DNA from: a virus
Lineage: Duplodnaviria; Caudoviricetes
IMG/VR virus record: IMGVR_UViG_3300044949_002606
Location: 1-57,930 of that record
Direction: 5' to 3' (one strand)
DNA length: 57,930 nucleotides
A model generated the notes under the pieces. It did no database searches, had not been told where the DNA came from, and saw only the letters and a list, made by a program, of their open reading frames with translations. Position 1 is the stretch's first letter, and each line of letters opens with the position of its first letter. Of the stretch, positions 26,633-34,298 are shown one piece after another. A program made the translations under genes and the position numbers.

Positions 26633-29420
26633 TGAGCGACTCCTGACGGTTGAGGACCTTGATGCGTTCGACCTTGATCATGCCGAAGCCCGGGATCTTG
26701 CGCCCACGCACCAGCAGCACGTCCTCCTCCGCCAGCAGCCTCTCCATCGCCACGCGCCCGAGCGGCTCGTACTTGAAGCGGTCGATGCGGCAGATGATCG
26801 GGATGCCGGTGTCGTCCTTGAGGAAGAGATCGGTGAAGAGCGTCTGCCCCGTGAGCCGGCGCCCGTCGCGCCGCGCGACGCGCACGGTCTCGTTCTCGTC
26901 GCGCAACTCCTTCTTCGCGATCTTGCCGATGAACAGCACGTCGCCCTGGTCGGGCAAGCGGTCCGCCGTGCACACCACCGATCCCGCCCGGCACCCGTGC
27001 GCCACGGGGTCCGCATAGAGCGCGGCGTACGTGCGCCCAATGGGGTAGAGGTCGGAGAACTTGACCGCCGCCGCCGCGATGCGGGCGCGGAGCTTGTTGT
27101 CCGTGCGCCCGAGCCGGCGCGCTTCCACCGCGGCCACAGCCTTCGCGGGGCCGAAACCCACCAAGTTCATGAACCCGCCCACGAGCTTGCCGTCCTGCAC
27201 GGACCAGTTGATGTCGGAGAGCTCGGGGTCGAACGCGACGTAGCCCACCCCTTCCGCCACCATCTCGCGCAGGATCTCGGTGGCTTGGTCGTCGTCCTTG
27301 GCGGAGCGCAAGCACGCCGCCGCGTATTCGAGCGGGTAGTACGCCTTCATCCACGCGCACCAGTAGCTGATCACCGCGTACGCGCACGTGTGACTCTTGT
27401 TCATGCCCCACGCGCCGAAGTTGCAGATCTCGTTCCAGATGTCGTGCGCGGTGCGGTCGTCGATGCCGTCCTGCGCGGCACCGGCGATGAACTTGGCGCC
27501 TTGCTGGTCGAAGTATTCCTTGCCCTTGCGGCCCGACATCGCCTTGCGGATCACGGTGGTTTCGTCCCAGGAGAACTTGCCGATGTCGCGCACGATGCGC
27601 ATCACCTGTTCCTGATACAGCACCACCCCATACGTGTCCGCCAACAACTCCTCCAGCGCGGGGTGCGTGTACGTGACGGGCTCGGAGCCGGCCTTGCGGG
27701 CGATGTACTTGCCCGTGGCGCCGCCGCCCAGCGGCCCCGGGCGGGCCAGCGCGGTGAGGTGGTCCACGGTGCGGAAACTGTCCACGTGCACCTGCGCGGA
27801 GATGGTGCGCTGGCTCTGGCCTTCGAATTGGAAGACGCCCGTGTACTTGCGCTGGTTGAAGACGTCGAGCACCTGCGGGTCGTCGAGCTTCAGCCCATAC
27901 AACGTCTCCGCCGTCACCACGCCGCTGTCCTCGATCACGCCCAGCGTCCGCAGCCCGAGCGCGTCTATCTTGAGCAGGTTCAGGTACTCGCTGTCGGGCT
28001 TGTCGATCTGCGCCACGCCGTCGGCGCCCACGGTGCAGTATTCGTCCACGGGCACGTTGCAGACGATGACGCCCGCGGCGTGCACGCCGGTGTGCCACGC
28101 GTGGTTCTCCACCTCGCTCATCACCGCCGCCTTGGGCCACCGGCTCATGAACGCGCGCCCGATCTCGGTGTTGCTGAGCGTGTCCTCCAACCCCTTGCCG
28201 TAGCGGCTGTCGCCCGACGAATACTCGATCAGCACGTTCAGCAGCTGGAACCGCTCCTTGTCGGGGATGCCGAACCGCTTGCACACCTCGGCCATCACGG
28301 AGCGCGGCTTCAGCGTGTTCACGTTGCCGATGCGCGCCACGCAGCTGCGCCCGTACTTGTTGGCCAAGTACTCGAAGCACTCGTCGCGCTTCACGTCGCT
28401 GAAGTCGATGTCGATGTCGGGCAAGTCCTTGCGCGTCAGGTCAATGAACCGCTCGAACAACAACCCGTGCGGGATGGGGTCGACTTCGGTGATGCCGAGC
28501 AGGTAGCACAACAACGACCCCGCCGACGAGCCGCGCCCGGGGCCGACGAGCATGCGCTGCTTGGCCCAAGCGATCAGGTCGGCCACGACGATGAAGTAGC
28601 TTTCGAACGCTTTGGCTTCGATGGCGGAGAGCTCGCGCTGCAACCGATCCTCGTACTCCCGCGGCCACGCCGGCAAGTGCCCGAGCGCCAACCTCCGCTG
28701 CCGCCCCTCCTCGGCCAGCGCGCGCAAGTCGCCGGGCACACGAATGATCGGCGCGGTGCGCAACGTCCCGGCGCATCGCTCGGCAACCTCGTGAGTGTTG
28801 CGCACAGCCTGCGCCCACTCCGCGTCGCTCAACCCGCGGATCGCGCGGCGCAACTCCTGCTCGCTCAACAAGTGCTGCGGCGTCGCCGCCTCGCGCACCC
28901 CGATCGCCAGCGCCGCAGTCGCGTCCGCCGCGGCGGGGAAGCTGTTGGAGGAGGTGAGCACGAGCGGCTTGCCGGTGCGGCGGTGCAGCATGATCGCCGC
29001 GCGCTGCGCCACGAGCGACGCCGGGTTGAGGTCGACGTAATCGAACAACTCCGGGTCCGTCAACGCCTCCCCCGCGAACCGCAACACGCCAGAGCTCTCG
29101 CGCAACAAACGCACGGCGTCCGCGTCTGGGCGCCGCAGCGCCGTGCTGAACTTGTAGAACCCGCGCACGTCCTCAGCGAGCGCCCACGCCTGTGGCTTGC
29201 GCCCGTCGGGTAGGGGTACGGTGAGCTCGGTGCCGAATAAAGGCTTAAATCCTGCGTTTGCTGCAGCCTTTGCCCACCGGACATGCCCCCACGTGCCGCC
29301 GTCCACGATCCCCGCGGCCGGGGCTTCCAAAGCTCGCACCGCGGCCGCCGCCCGCGGCACCGGCCCGAACGCCTGCCGGAAGCTGAACTCCGTGCGGCAA
29401 CGCAGCTGCGGCAACATCAC
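26598..29420 (-). CDS. dnaE: Family C DNA polymerase (DNA pol III alpha-like, 940 aa)
   Basis: GPGRGSSAGS, LLFERF, PDIDIDF, HAAG, KIDALGL, GVFQFE, YQEQVM, NKSH...Y. Confidence 0.97.
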   Translation of the reverse strand: MMLPQLRCRTEFSFRQAFGPVPRAAAAVRALEAPAAGIVDGGTWGHVRWAKAAANAGFKPLFGTELTVPLPDGRKPQAWALAEDVRGFYKFSTALRRPDADAVRLLRESSGVLRFAGEALTDPELFDYVDLNPASLVAQRAAIMLHRRTGKPLVLTSSNSFPAAADATAALAIGVREAATPQHLLSEQELRRAIRGLSDAEWAQAVRNTHEVAERCAGTLRTAPIIRVPGDLRALAEEGRQRRLALGHLPAWPREYEDRLQRELSAIEAKAFESYFIVVADLIAWAKQRMLVGPGRGSSAGSLLCYLLGITEVDPIPHGLLFERFIDLTRKDLPDIDIDFSDVKRDECFEYLANKYGRSCVARIGNVNTLKPRSVMAEVCKRFGIPDKERFQLLNVLIEYSSGDSRYGKGLEDTLSNTEIGRAFMSRWPKAAVMSEVENHAWHTGVHAAGVIVCNVPVDEYCTVGADGVAQIDKPDSEYLNLLKIDALGLRTLGVIEDSGVVTAETLYGLKLDDPQVLDVFNQRKYTGVFQFEGQSQRTISAQVHVDSFRTVDHLTALARPGPLGGGATGKYIARKAGSEPVTYTHPALEELLADTYGVVLYQEQVMRIVRDIGKFSWDETTVIRKAMSGRKGKEYFDQQGAKFIAGAAQDGIDDRTAHDIWNEICNFGAWGMNKSHTCAYAVISYWCAWMKAYYPLEYAAACLRSAKDDDQATEILREMVAEGVGYVAFDPELSDINWSVQDGKLVGGFMNLVGFGPAKAVAAVEARRLGRTDNKLRARIAAAAVKFSDLYPIGRTYAALYADPVAHGCRAGSVVCTADRLPDQGDVLFIGKIAKKELRDENETVRVARRDGRRLTGQTLFTDLFLKDDTGIPIICRIDRFKYEPLGRVAMERLLAEEDVLLVRGRKIPGFGMIKVERIKVLNRQESLSESQTGTALVG

Positions 29421-29992
29421 ACTTGCTCCTCTTCAACAGTTTCCAGCGCCAGCTCGTGCAGCCCCAGCGCCACCACGACTTCCACCAGCGCCAGCACGTC
29501 GTCGAGCGCCCGGTGCGTCTGCGGCAGTGGTCGGCCCAGCGTGTGTTCGTACAACTCGGTGAGCTTCGGGTTGCGGCCCCAGGCGCCGCGGTGCAGCCCG
29601 ACGGTGCAGAACTCTGCGGCGGGCCAGGGGAACTCCACCGCACCGCACCGCGCCAAGTCGTAGTGCAGCAGCGCCTTGTCGAACGGCAAGTTGTGCGCGA
29701 ACACGGCGCGCGCTTGCCCGAAGATGTGCCGCAGCTGAGGCAAGCACTCTCCGAACGGCGGCGCCCCGACCAAGTCGGCGTTGGTGATGCCGGTGATCTT
29801 GGTGATCTCGGCGGACACCTCCTCGCCGGGGTGCACGAGCTGGCTGAGCGTTTCGACCACCTGCCCGCGACGGTCGACGAGCGCCGCGCCGAGCTCAATG
29901 ATCTTGGGTTGCTTGGCGAGCGGGGCGTCCGGGTGCAGCGTGAGGCCCGTGGTCTCCGTGTCGAAAACAACGATGAGCGGCTCGGCGTTCAC
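29417..29992 (-). CDS. dnaQ: DEDDh 3'-5' exonuclease (epsilon-like)
   Basis: FDTETTG, HNLPFD and HRALDD motifs; GTGA overlap with the polymerase. Confidence 0.92.
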   Translation of the reverse strand: MNAEPLIVVFDTETTGLTLHPDAPLAKQPKIIELGAALVDRRGQVVETLSQLVHPGEEVSAEITKITGITNADLVGAPPFGECLPQLRHIFGQARAVFAHNLPFDKALLHYDLARCGAVEFPWPAAEFCTVGLHRGAWGRNPKLTELYEHTLGRPLPQTHRALDDVLALVEVVVALGLHELALETVEEEQV

Positions 29993-33390: not shown

Positions 33391-34298
33391 GCTGCGGCCC
33401 TCCGCAAGTCGTAGGCGCTGCTCGACTTCAACAGCCGCTTCACCTGCACGATGTCGTCGACCACATCGTCGAGCAGGATGTTGCGCCAAGTGGCGAACCG
33501 CCCCAGCGAGAACACGTTGTGCTCATGCGTGAGCCGGAACAAGAGCTGCTTGCGCAGCGCGTCGTCGATCGGCGCGATCTTGCCGAAGGACTGCTGGACT
33601 TGCTCCTTGTTCACCCAGCAGTCCTTGCGCACTCCGAAGGCGTGCTCCACCGCCCCGATGTCCTCCAGCTCCAGCGGCCCGACCGACTCCACGATGAGCG
33701 TCGAGCCGGTGATGCTGGCGCGGTAGACGCTCAGGTGCGGCTCGGGGAAGTACACCGTCTGGAACACATCCGCCCCGGGCACCGCCCAGCGCGACACCGT
33801 GATCGGCGCCCGCGGGAAGTCGCACTCCGGCTTCATGCCCAGCGCCGCCAGCGTCGCGGGCAGCGGTGCCGTGCTCACGACCGCGCCGCGCATGCCGGCG
33901 AAGTCTGCCGGGGTGTTCCAGTGGATGCGCGGCCCGACGGCCTCGATCATCTGTTCGTACAACGTCTCCGGCGCAATGAACCGCTCGACGGTGTCGAGGT
34001 TCCAGACGCTGCGGTCGCCCAGCAGCCGATCGGGGCCGAGCACCTTCTGCGCGTAGGTGTTGGCGTGCCGAATGTTGGGCGCGCAGAACTCGCCCGCGGC
34101 CCAGAGCCCCTTGCGCACCGTGACGCGGCGGAACTCGATGCCCGTCAGCCGCGCGACGGCGTCCGTGCGGAACCGCAGCAGCGCCCGGTGCGCCTGCCGC
34201 GGGCCGGGGCCGGCCTCAAGGACCGTCGCGGTGGGCCACGCGTGCGCCGCGATCAGCCCCGCGAGCCCGGCGCCGACGATGGTGGGTGTGATGGTCAT
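33387..34298 (-). CDS. FAD-dependent oxidoreductase (UDP-galactopyranose mutase / HemY-like fold, 303 aa)
   Basis: IVGAGLAG Rossmann motif, LEA, VSTAPL and C-terminal LGRFATW. Confidence 0.8.
   Translation of the reverse strand: MTITPTIVGAGLAGLIAAHAWPTATVLEAGPGPRQAHRALLRFRTDAVARLTGIEFRRVTVRKGLWAAGEFCAPNIRHANTYAQKVLGPDRLLGDRSVWNLDTVERFIAPETLYEQMIEAVGPRIHWNTPADFAGMRGAVVSTAPLPATLAALGMKPECDFPRAPITVSRWAVPGADVFQTVYFPEPHLSVYRASITGSTLIVESVGPLELEDIGAVEHAFGVRKDCWVNKEQVQQSFGKIAPIDDALRKQLLFRLTHEHNVFSLGRFATWRNILLDDVVDDIVQVKRLLKSSSAYDLRRAAA

Follow-up and report, generated by a model that had tools for sequence, protein, structure and literature searches.

Does a block of genes on the minus strand of a complete 57.9-kb podophage-like genome encode a pathway for a non-canonical thymidine? 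The initial annotation of the window (the whole stretch of 57,930 nucleotides that was analysed) had proposed that an altered ThyX attaches to C5 of dUMP a side chain tailored by a flavoenzyme, an SDR and a VOC enzyme, and that the product, comparable to the dihydroxypentyluracil of phage SP-15, is used by the phage polymerase and protects against restriction. We first looked at whether the genes are there. All ten exist on the minus strand in the order described, and the observation is thus confirmed. An eleventh gene (34295-34885) belongs to the block, and the DnaE gene lies outside the 29417-34298 interval that had been assigned to the pathway. The features are the following:

34295-34885 (−), 196-aa protein with a conserved C-terminal domain, possibly winged-helix-like, the positional and sequence counterpart of Pbunavirus 14-1 gp67
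33387-34298 (−), 303-aa flavoprotein with a predicted UDP-galactopyranose-mutase (UGM)-like fold
33076-33390 (−), 104-aa Zn-ribbon protein, probably a regulator, present only in close relatives
33022-33075 (−), 54-nt intergenic gap with a TATAAT and a ribosome-binding site (GGAAA), both read from the sequence, before ThyX
32293-33021 (−), divergent ThyX, hereafter ThyX*
31931-32296 (−), denV-type pyrimidine-dimer DNA glycosylase
31443-31934 (−), PNKP-type HAD phosphatase
31153-31446 (−), 97-aa all-alpha DUF6378 four-helix protein
30476-31156 (−), classical SDR oxidoreductase
29989-30471 (−), VOC/glyoxalase-fold protein
29417-29992 (−), DnaQ-type 3'-5' exonuclease
26598-29420 (−), DnaE-type DNA polymerase, a syntenic neighbour

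Gene content and predicted folds of the block

The initial annotation had described nearly all these genes as joined by ATGA/GTGA overlaps. Of the ten junctions, seven are 4-nt overlaps of this type. The flavoprotein/Zn-ribbon junction reads ATGATGA and is therefore also a 4-nt overlap, the eighth, if the first ATG (33390) is the start. The two others are the 54-nt gap between the Zn-ribbon and ThyX* genes and a 4-nt gap between SDR and VOC.

The product of the eleventh gene, whose stop overlaps the flavoprotein start by 4 nt, passes no Pfam family. An hhalign comparison of its family (14 sequences) with the gp67 family (4 sequences) gave a probability of 97.3% (E 1.6e-11 over 73 columns), indicating that its C-terminal domain is homologous to the conserved gene upstream of the flavoprotein in Pbunavirus-like phages. 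The winged-helix reading rests only on an atlas lead to DUF3489 (0.81). The flavoprotein contains a GAGLAG Rossmann motif and matches phrog_4828 (5.8e-92) but no Pfam or NCBIfam family; its family has 2607 relatives. Its AF2 model (pLDDT 86.0) had UGM chains as top Foldseek hits (E 6.5e-10 to 1e-8). In VIA-align the UGM 4dsg_A gave a Z of 19.6 (rmsd 3.5, 289 aligned), which is only about 2 above the best non-UGM match, a protoporphyrinogen oxidase (Z 17.7).

The Zn-ribbon protein scored 2.4e-4 with Zn_ribbon_NrdR, below the Pfam cut-off; tblastn found it in 23 of 80 metagenomic loci, and L004, the window's own, also matches. The denV product was identified with Pyr_excise (2e-13) and phrog_1183 (6.8e-37). 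Its gene lies between ThyX and HAD in 21 of the 80 metagenomic loci, all among the closer relatives, and a 22nd hit (locus L065) lies elsewhere on the opposite strand; it is probably an inserted repair gene and not part of the core. The HAD protein passed HAD_PNKP (32.6 bits against a cut-off of 27.6), carries a DLDNC (DxDxx) motif, and is fused to the next domain in Pluto, Carpasina, 14-1, Bas99 and the Rhizobium phage. For that next protein, DUF6378 scored 20.8 bits against a cut-off of 27.1, and the protein matches the C-terminal part of phrog_4889 (1.4e-24). In 31 sequences residues L8, R18, Y22, K60, R63, H71, D73, S74, D77 and A83 are invariant. Its AF2 model (pLDDT 94.3) had no Foldseek match, and the best VIA Z of 7.2 is at noise level for helical proteins. 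The initial annotation had called it a nucleotide protein, but we detected no link to nucleotide pyrophosphatases and an action on nucleotides is not shown.

The SDR (adh_short 1.1e-33) has TGSGAGLG and YNASK motifs, and its solved relatives are generic (gluconate 5-dehydrogenase and FabG, about 1e-16). The VOC protein was just above the cut-off (Glyoxalase_4, 27.7 bits against 27.0); its invariant residues in 20 sequences include Q7, E67, E69, H89, H93, H122 and D148, and a sequence profile found no solved relative. DnaQ was identified with RNase_T (3.2e-25) and phrog_192 (8.8e-41). DnaE is 52% identical to the 14-1 DNA polymerase over 768 residues and is annotated as DNA polymerase III alpha in relatives. 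The genome has no ThyA-family gene and no second ThyX, and Pfam found no kinase, glycosyltransferase or dioxygenase family in 40 further ORFs of the window. As already pointed out in the initial annotation, no recognisable kinase is present to make the triphosphate.

A conserved core and an accessory SDR-VOC pair

We then asked whether this ThyX subtype co-occurs with the other enzymes, which had been named beforehand as the decisive point. For the flavoprotein the outcome was positive: a ThyX of this subtype lies downstream of a flavoprotein relative in 79 of 80 metagenomic loci, and the one exception ends inside the flavoprotein gene. In the 62 loci where both the flavoprotein and DnaQ were found, ThyX* is present in 62, and HAD plus DUF6378 are both present in 55. 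In contrast, SDR and VOC are both present in 35 of the 62 and both absent from 26. They are thus a linked accessory pair, and they are absent from Pbunavirus, the only lineage with chemical data. The conserved unit is therefore narrower than had been proposed, and consists of the UGM-like flavoprotein, ThyX*, the PNKP-type HAD phosphatase and DUF6378.

This unit recurs in at least five isolated phage lineages: Pbunavirus, Wifcevirus, Myosmarvirus, Carpasinavirus and 206-kb Rhizobium phages. We found it in Luteibacter Pluto, Xanthomonas Carpasina, Serratia Hera, Pseudomonas 14-1, Banzai and F8, and Escherichia Bas99; Wifcevirus Bas98-101 carry the full module including SDR and VOC. More loosely, Microbacterium phage Sparcetus has a Rossmann flavoprotein, HAD, SDR, VOC, DUF6378, DnaE and a GT2, with a ThyX carrying THQAVRQR 7 kb away. 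In the 206-kb Rhizobium phage RHph_TM2_3B the core sits beside dUTPase and ribonucleotide reductase, without DnaE, so that the proposed coupling to the polymerase is synteny and not a rule. The phage studied here shares only 10 ORFs with 14-1. Six of them appear to be replication-associated (helicase, primase-like, DnaE, DnaQ, a Pam3-gp34-like protein and the C-terminal part of a 193-aa protein of unknown function), and the other four are the flavoprotein, ThyX*, HAD and DUF6378.

One could argue that the module makes something other than a DNA base, for example a modified nucleotide or nucleoside used as an inhibitor or signal, or a sugar derivative that alters the host surface. SDR, VOC and UGM-like enzymes are common in small-molecule and cell-surface sugar pathways, and in this genome nothing connects the product to DNA apart from the neighbouring polymerase. 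However, the set is tightly linked with replication or nucleotide-metabolism genes in every lineage examined and modified DNA has been demonstrated in relatives (see below), and we consider this possibility very unlikely.

The altered active site of ThyX*

ThyX* belongs to PF02511 (8.4e-32), and its best solved relative is T. maritima ThyX, at only 1.3e-7. It carries the motif RSRx7T and a lid Val in place of RHRx7S and Tyr. We compared 33 distinct members (29 metagenomic relatives plus 4 further isolates). The equivalents of T. maritima R78, R80, R90, R147, R165 and R174 are invariant, whereas the RHR His is Ser or Thr in 33 of 33 and the Tyr lid is Val, Ile or Ala in 33 of 33. In ThyX, RHR contacts FAD, Ser and Arg hold dUMP, and the Tyr shields C5 and N5 (PMC6514825).

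These results bear on a rival reading, in which ordinary nucleotide supply and repair genes travel with a DnaE replication module. ThyX* would make dTMP, the flavoprotein would supply reducing power or do something unrelated, HAD would be a DNA 3'-phosphatase or nucleotidase, denV would repair UV damage, SDR and VOC would be auxiliary metabolic genes, and the Pbunavirus modification would be made by other, unassigned genes. Indeed, ThyX* passes the NCBIfam thyX equivalog cut-off (TIGR02170, 94 bits against 87.9), keeps all dUMP- and flavin-contacting arginines and is the only thymidylate synthase in the genome; it could therefore simply make dTMP. The neighbourhood in the Rhizobium phage is a classical nucleotide-supply one, the HAD domain belongs to the polynucleotide kinase/phosphatase family, and denV keeps an N-terminus and a Glu in an AEYRELPRV stretch like T4 endonuclease V. 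Nevertheless, the loss of the Tyr lid and RHR His in every member aligned is hard to reconcile with unchanged chemistry, the flavoprotein family co-occurs with this ThyX subtype across unrelated virion types, and relatives are chemically modified with no other recognisable pathway. We thus regard this reading as unlikely, although it remains the strongest of the alternatives.

Modified thymidine in relatives and a candidate pathway

A 2025 preprint (PMC12191111) reports that virion DNA of Pbunavirus F8 and 14-1 contains sugar-derived hypermodified thymidines of 362 and 390 Da, replacing about a quarter of T. Its authors note that these phages carry no known modification genes and that Pbunavirus would be missed by searches for such genes. 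Pfam found no glycosyltransferase or kinase in 10 further 14-1/F8 proteins. A 2025 paper also reports Wifcevirus as restriction-resistant with no known mechanism. The SP-15 analogy drawn in the initial annotation has some substance: by our calculation the 362-Da nucleoside of F8 has the mass of dihydroxypentyl-dU plus two oxygens, and SP-15 has a divergent ThyX-family gene directly after an SDR-like gene, both listed by its sequencers among the presumed modification genes (PMC5977210). According to titles cited in PMC5977210, dihydroxypentyl-uracil is made as a triphosphate and takes label from ribose.

The link from the module to the Pbunavirus modification rests on association and exclusion. 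Between F8 and 14-1, whose side chains differ, the HAD-DUF6378 protein is 80% identical while its neighbours are mostly 92-99%. However, the flavoprotein (97.3%) and ThyX* (93.8%) hardly differ, and among the dozens of 14-1 ORFs without an assigned function one (14-1 gp71/F8 gp070) is only 56.5% identical. In addition, the TG context reported for Pbunavirus in the preprint does not fit a purely pool-level pathway; it points to a sequence-specific step on DNA, for which we found no candidate enzyme. TG accounts for 27.7% of T in 14-1, which matches the reported quarter. In the genome studied here the palindrome-avoidance contrast is weak (O/E 0.84 with TG against 0.79 without, p = 0.13).

The TG context would suit a hydroxymethyl-dU route, in which the opened lid of ThyX* lets water capture the exocyclic methylene to give 5-hydroxymethyl-dUMP. 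After incorporation the base would be O-linked on DNA, in a sequence context, to a pentose or tetritol. The donor would be prepared by the UGM-like enzyme (a furanose nucleotide sugar) and, in this phage, by SDR and VOC, and the PNKP-type HAD with DUF6378 would act on DNA, PNKP-type HADs being, by family name, enzymes of polynucleotides. By our calculation the masses fit equally well, since hmdU plus pentose minus water is 390 and hmdU plus tetritol minus water is 362. A bona fide UGM serves sugar supply for glycosylated 5-hydroxycytosine in Rhizobium phage RL38J1 (PMC13326640), and the SP-15 sequencers hypothesised that its second ThyX-family protein is a hydroxymethyl-uridylate synthase (PMC5977210). 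On the other hand, no glycosyltransferase, hmU DNA kinase or other transferase was found in this genome or among the 14-1 proteins scanned, the preprint text considered here describes only T and the hypermodified base with no residual hmdU, and the flavoprotein is far from canonical UGMs. This route is therefore improbable on present evidence.

Taken together, the initial interpretation is partly supported. The genes, their conservation as a unit, the altered ThyX residues and the UGM-like fold of the flavoprotein model come from our analysis and the modified nucleosides in relatives from the literature, whereas it is an inference that this module makes them and, from sequence alone, that this uncultured phage is modified. 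Every step of the mechanism that we favour is likewise inferred. In this view ThyX* still binds dUMP and flavin, but its pocket over uracil C5 and flavin N5 is opened (Tyr lid replaced by Val or Ala) and the folate-stacking His is lost. It would therefore take a larger electrophile than methylene-tetrahydrofolate, namely an aldose carbon presented as a flavin-N5 iminium, the intermediate that UGM-type enzymes form from nucleotide sugars, and couple this carbon to C5. Flavin reduction would then give a 1-deoxy-alditol chain, or ring closure a cyclic sugar, and the HAD phosphatase would remove a phosphate from the sugar part or from a nucleotide intermediate. In this phage the SDR and VOC pair would further tailor the chain by keto-reduction, isomerisation or dehydration, towards a less oxygenated chain like that of SP-15, and host kinases and the phage DnaE would complete incorporation.

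Most likely, although only somewhat more probably than not, the block is thus a conserved phage pathway making a C5-substituted deoxyuridine with a sugar-derived polyhydroxyalkyl or glycosyl side chain. It is the best candidate so far for making the sugar-decorated thymine recently found in related phages, whose biosynthetic genes are unknown, and its product would partly replace thymidine in virion DNA and blunt restriction.

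The gene block and its recurrence in phage genomes

The 57,930-bp record is a complete virus genome with direct terminal repeats and about 66% G+C, in which the genes at 22.9-37.7 kb run on the minus strand. Pfam and PHROGs searches confirmed the gene list proposed in the initial annotation, whose observation therefore holds. In order, the block and the gene preceding it are composed of:

34295-34885, minus strand: gene upstream of the flavoprotein gene and translationally coupled to it
minus strand: 303-aa Rossmann flavoprotein with no Pfam family (phrog_4828)
minus strand: Zn-ribbon protein
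33022-33075: 54-nt gap before ThyX
minus strand: ThyX (hereafter ThyX*)
minus strand: denV
minus strand: PNKP-type HAD phosphatase
minus strand: 97-aa all-alpha protein (DUF6378, below cut-off)
minus strand: SDR
minus strand: VOC protein
minus strand: DnaQ
minus strand: DnaE

Eight of ten junctions are 4-nt ATGA/GTGA overlaps. The gap before ThyX*, the only sizeable one inside the block, holds a TATAAT and a ribosome site (GGTATAAT and GAAAGGAAAC, respectively), which suggests an internal promoter separating the flavoprotein and Zn-ribbon genes from ThyX* and the genes after it. The C-terminal domain of the 34295-34885 product is homologous to the conserved gene found at the same position in Pbunavirus-like phages (hhalign probability 97.3%, E 1.6e-11).

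The rest of the genome is podophage-like, with an SU10 adaptor, a GP4 fiber protein, terminase and lysozyme. The other replication genes encode an SNF2 helicase, a RepB-type primase, and Pam3 gp32- and gp34-like proteins. Together with a YuA gp49-like protein, the Pam3-like proteins lie at 22950-24699 and 36356-36652; these families are named after Pseudomonas siphophages, and the YuA group includes phages with a different thymidine hypermodification. Pfam found no kinase, glycosyltransferase or dioxygenase in 40 further ORFs. A search with PF00303 detected no ThyA-family gene in the genome, whereas 10 of 14 control genomes matched, and only one ThyX is present.

We then looked at how far the block is conserved. 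The flavoprotein has 2607 relatives in the large protein collection, none of the 120 listed carrying a Pfam domain, and it matches 362 isolate phage records, 292 of them Pseudomonas phages. The best 80 of 385 confirmed IMG/VR loci were searched with the eleven window proteins. ThyX follows the flavoprotein in 79 of these 80 loci, and the exception ends inside the flavoprotein gene. In 62 loci both the flavoprotein and DnaQ were found, so that the interval is complete; among those 62, ThyX is present in 62, and HAD and DUF6378 are both present in 55. SDR and VOC are both present in 35, neither is present in 26, and SDR is found alone in 1. Since these loci are the closest relatives and include near-duplicates, the counts are not independent events. 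Where SDR and VOC are missing, DUF6378 often abuts DnaQ, with a gap of 3-66 nt in 14 of the 23 such loci listed with a DUF6378 hit. SDR and VOC behave as one accessory cassette.

Isolated phages show the same pattern. Luteibacter phage Pluto, Xanthomonas phage Carpasina, Serratia phage Hera and Escherichia phage Bas99 have the full set, with HAD and DUF6378 fused, while Pbunavirus 14-1, Banzai and F8 have the core (flavoprotein, ThyX*, HAD and DUF6378) but no SDR or VOC. The Wifcevirus phages Bas98-101, which include Bas99, and Serratia phage MTx also carry the full module. The VOC protein matches 55 phage records, none of them from Pseudomonas. Two findings show that the core is more than synteny within one lineage. 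First, this phage shares only 10 ORFs with 14-1 and no structural genes, and four of the ten are the core. Second, in the 206-kb Rhizobium phage RHph_TM2_3B the flavoprotein, a ThyX 51.5% identical to ThyX* and a fused HAD-DUF6378 lie within 7 kb, beside dUTPase and ribonucleotide reductase and with no DnaE.

A more distant arrangement was found in the actinophage Sparcetus of Microbacterium (37.7-49.1 kb of the record), which carries a Rossmann flavoprotein, HAD, SDR, a VOC homologue (38% identity), a DUF6378-containing protein, a split DnaE and a GT2 glycosyltransferase. A ThyX of the same motif type (THQAVRQR...SMRF) lies 7 kb away, inside a 467-aa open frame. This looks like a distant version of the module that includes a glycosyltransferase; however, comparison of the Sparcetus flavoprotein with the flavoprotein profile gave an hhalign probability of 59% over the N-terminal Rossmann part only, and homology is not demonstrable beyond it. 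ThyX* relatives at 54-55% identity also occur in small podophages, Cronobacter vB_CsaP_Ss1 (42 kb) and Vibrio VA-RY-3 (40 kb). The tblastn search that revealed them (phage collection, E <= 1e-20) listed 57 records with only one Pseudomonas phage, although 14-1 matches at 1e-41 in a local search; as we cannot explain this shortfall, the count was not used.

Predicted properties of the encoded proteins

ThyX* scores well on the family models (PF02511, 110.9 bits against a cut-off of 24.8; TIGR02170, 94 bits against 87.9) but only 1.3e-7 against solved ThyX sequences. Residues were mapped through the HMMER alignment to Thermotoga maritima ThyX, after correction for the 12-residue tag in the chain numbering, and were counted in an alignment of 29 metagenomic members and in a second one of 5 sequences; the two share the window's own protein, so that 33 are distinct. 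The equivalents of the dUMP- and flavin-binding residues R78, R80, R90, R147, R165 and R174 are invariant (29 of 29 and 5 of 5). In contrast, the ThyX motif RHRx7S is not conserved. The window reads RSRNASYAQQT, and the central His is Ser or Thr in 29 of 29 and 5 of 5 sequences, giving RSR or RTR, while the motif Ser is Thr, Ser or Ala. The lid Tyr (M. tuberculosis Y108, T. maritima Y91) is Val in the window, Val in 28 and Ile in 1 of the 29 metagenomic members, and Ala in 4 and Val in 1 of the second set. The equivalents of H53, H59 and H178 are Ile, Phe and Arg; H53 has a role in folate stacking. RHR, named as the conserved FDTS motif in PMC6514825, is described there as contacting FAD, the Ser and Arg as holding dUMP, and the Tyr as a lid over uracil C5 and flavin N5. 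Nucleotide binding therefore appears to be kept while the space over the reacting atoms is opened. The ThyX* proteins of Pluto, Carpasina, Hera and 14-1 also carry a C-terminal Cys-rich segment (consensus CVAxGxCAFPRxGKxHC), possibly a metal or cluster site, that the window's protein and its close relatives lack.

The flavoprotein was modelled with a pLDDT of 86 and carries an N-terminal GxGxxG FAD motif. The predicted fold is closest to that of UDP-galactopyranose mutases (UGM), with a Foldseek E of 6.5e-10 and a VIA Z of 19.6 to 4dsg_A, rmsd 3.5 over 289 of 303 residues. Related oxidase folds are nevertheless within 2-4 Z units, protoporphyrinogen oxidases scoring Z 17.7 and amine oxidases about 16. 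The protein is also about 60-200 residues shorter than solved UGMs, with 14-19% identity, and it does not belong to the family by sequence: no Pfam or NCBIfam family matched, and a profile search against PDB sequences gave a best E of 0.31. A predicted complex of two ThyX* copies plus the flavoprotein scored 0.00 and was given no weight either way.

The all-alpha protein had been described in the initial annotation as nucleotide-related, and we examined whether it could be a MazG/dUTPase-like pyrophosphatase. Pfam gave only DUF6378, below cut-off, and an atlas search gave DUF6378 clusters. A profile search against PDB sequences returned only POU-domain chains at E 0.0025, which we take as chance. 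The model is a confident four-helix protein (pLDDT 94.3) with ten invariant positions in the family (L8, R18, Y22, K60, R63, H71, D73, S74, D77 and A83), yet Foldseek found nothing at E <= 0.001 and the best VIA Z was 7.2, within noise for helical proteins. No assignment was made.

The HAD protein passes the PNKP-type model (PF25109, 32.6 bits against 27.6) and has VDLDNC as a DxDx(T/V)-type nucleophile motif. The SDR is a generic classical one (adh_short, 1.1e-33) with intact TGxxxGxG and YxxxK motifs, TGSGAGLG and YNASK. The VOC protein is a marginal pass (Glyoxalase_4, 27.7 bits against 27.0); invariant E67, E69, H89, H93, H122 and D148 are candidates for a metal site, and a profile search found no solved relative.

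Modified thymidines in related phages

The END-nuclease preprint (PMC12191111) reports that F8 DNA resists enzymes whose sites contain TG, and that LC-MS shows novel nucleosides of 362 Da (F8) and 390 Da (14-1) replacing about a quarter of T. Pbunavirus is presented there as an example of a modified phage lacking known modification genes. In 14-1, T followed by G makes up 27.7% of all T, which matches modification of essentially every TG. The TG assignment needs care, however, since Extended Data Table 3 lists DraI with the site CACNNNGTG (CACNNN/GTG), which contains TG, although the text counts DraI among the enzymes without TG that cut F8 DNA. Both phages carry the core genes, with a flavoprotein about 44% and a ThyX* 38% identical to those of the window and a fused HAD-DUF6378, all next to DnaQ and DnaE, and their modification is sugar-derived, which suits a UGM-like enzyme. 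They differ from this phage by the absence of SDR and VOC, by the Cys-rich insert of ThyX* and by their virion type. We found no biosynthetic genes named in the preprint. Wifcevirus phages, described as distant relatives of Pbunavirus in the BASEL completion paper (PMC11990801), resist restriction by an unknown mechanism, with EcoP1_I as the exception. In a literature search that did not cover most subscription journals or supplements, we found no paper naming the genes behind the Pbunavirus modification or linking ThyX or UGM-like genes to it, and PMC13229309 (T-dioxygenases) contained none of the terms looked for.

By our arithmetic, 362 equals dU plus C5H10O4 and 390 equals dU plus C6H10O5. 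The same formulae fit three structures: a C-C-linked polyol or cyclic sugar counted from uracil C5, an ether or glycoside of 5-hydroxymethyl-dU, or thymidine carrying a C4 or C5 unit on its methyl carbon. Although the side chains of F8 and 14-1 differ, most proteins of the module region are 92-99% identical between them, including the flavoprotein (97%) and ThyX* (94%). The exceptions are the HAD-DUF6378 protein (80%), three small ORFs flanking ThyX (78-82%) and the 398/434-aa protein gp070/gp71, which has no Pfam family (56.5%); these are candidates for what sets the different side chains. If the module is responsible, side-chain identity is probably set by HAD-DUF6378 or by something outside the core.

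The 362-Da species has the mass of 5-(4',5'-dihydroxypentyl)-dU of Bacillus phage SP-15 plus two oxygens. The SP-15 genome paper (PMC5977210) cites work titled as showing that this base, a five-carbon chain on C5 of uracil, is made as a triphosphate and takes label from ribose, and it lists gene 129 (an SDR-like reductase) and gene 130 (a second, divergent ThyX-family protein) among the presumed pathway genes, whose roles are only hypothesised. We confirmed that SP15_129 ends where SP15_130 (413 aa, 26 bits to PF02511) begins, at 115.0-116.9 kb of the record, and that a HAD-like 'polynucleotide kinase' lies 4 kb downstream. These genes have no detectable sequence similarity to the present module (tblastn E > 0.09), and a search for a flavoprotein relative in SP-15, made without a positive control, found none.

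In the described thymidine hypermodification pathways (PMC8989533; Lee et al. 2018/2021) a ThyA-type dUMP hydroxymethylase and a 5-hmdU DNA kinase precede substitution. The purpose and the partial replacement of T would be the same, but the flavin enzymes found here have no counterpart in those pathways, this genome has no ThyA-family gene, and no kinase family was found in 50 ORFs with Pfam models, dedicated models for these phage enzymes not being included.

If TG sites are protected, palindromic restriction-type sites containing TG should escape counter-selection. We used this as an indirect test.

Observed/expected ratios of 6-mer palindromes with and without TG
14-1: with TG 0.96; without TG 0.73; p = 0.078
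Bas99: with TG 1.02; without TG 0.76; p = 0.007
this window: with TG 0.84; without TG 0.79; p = 0.13
T7 (the only control): with TG 0.60; without TG 0.58; p not computed

TA- and TT-containing palindromes are equally unavoided in 14-1 and Bas99, so base composition confounds the result. After removal of CG-containing palindromes the direction persists (window, 0.82 against 0.70; T7, 0.59 against 0.72), but with a single control this is suggestive only; it is weak support for the relatives and says little about this phage. In Bas99, six GC-rich 6-mer palindromes are completely absent although 8-24 copies are expected (TCCGGA, AGCGCT, GGCGCC, CCGCGG, CGGCCG and GGTACC), yet 19 EcoRI sites and 89 sites for EcoP1I (AGACC) remain.

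A candidate pathway and its implications

Altogether, the interpretation of the initial annotation, a pathway for a thymidine analogue coupled to the phage polymerase, is partly supported. A modification pathway built around an altered ThyX and a UGM-like flavoprotein is the best reading, and it gains strong circumstantial support from the chemistry published on relatives; the SDR and VOC pair, given a tailoring role in that proposal, is accessory, and the polymerase link is not obligatory. What the analysis shows is the genes, their conservation as a unit, the altered ThyX residues and the UGM-like fold; the reaction catalysed by ThyX*, the roles of its partners and the presence of a modified nucleoside in the virion DNA of this uncultured phage are inferred. 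We consider it somewhat more likely than not that the module makes a sugar-derived C5-substituted deoxyuridine. Within that reading we favour a nucleotide-level reaction, in which ThyX* would couple an aldose carbon, carried as a flavin-N5 iminium of the kind UGM enzymes form, to C5 of dUMP and then reduce or cyclise it. The reasons are that ThyX* keeps its dUMP site and loses the lid, that the flavoprotein is UGM-like, that no glycosyltransferase or kinase was found among the ORFs scanned, and that in the Rhizobium phage the core sits among nucleotide-pool genes. SDR and VOC may tailor the side chain, an inference from their linkage and from the SP-15 parallel.

The ordinary reading, dTMP supply plus repair, is less likely but remains open, since ThyX* passes the equivalog cut-off and is the only thymidylate synthase in the genome. 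The main alternative, which we hold unlikely, is 5-hmdUMP synthesis followed by glycosylation on DNA; it explains the TG context better but lacks any candidate transferase among the ORFs scanned.

A bolder possibility, less likely than not, is that ThyX* is a new kind of flavin-dependent C5-alkylating enzyme that, instead of relaying a methylene from folate, couples C1 of an aldose to C5 of dUMP, the aldose being held as a flavin-N5 iminium generated with or by the UGM-like flavoprotein. The product would be a C-C-linked polyhydroxyalkyl- or C-glycosyl-deoxyuridine, namely tetrahydroxypentyl-dU at 362 Da and a cyclised hexose-derived form at 390 Da, and the SDR and VOC cassette would then deoxygenate the chain towards the dihydroxypentyl type of SP-15. 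This would explain a 50-year-old unsolved biosynthesis and the newly found Pbunavirus bases with a single enzyme logic.

Pbunaviruses are among the phages most used in therapy against Pseudomonas aeruginosa, and their DNA was found to be hypermodified only in 2025. A four-gene core shared by these phages, by Wifceviruses, by this metagenomic podophage and by thousands of metagenomic relatives gives a concrete, testable candidate pathway, which would be built on two flavoenzymes rather than on the ThyA, kinase and transferase logic of all described thymidine hypermodifications. If confirmed, it would add a new reaction type to the ThyX family and bear on the unsolved origin of the SP-15 base. 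It would also give a genomic marker for predicting modified phage DNA, useful for sequencing, for host-range prediction and for anticipating sensitivity to modification-dependent nucleases.
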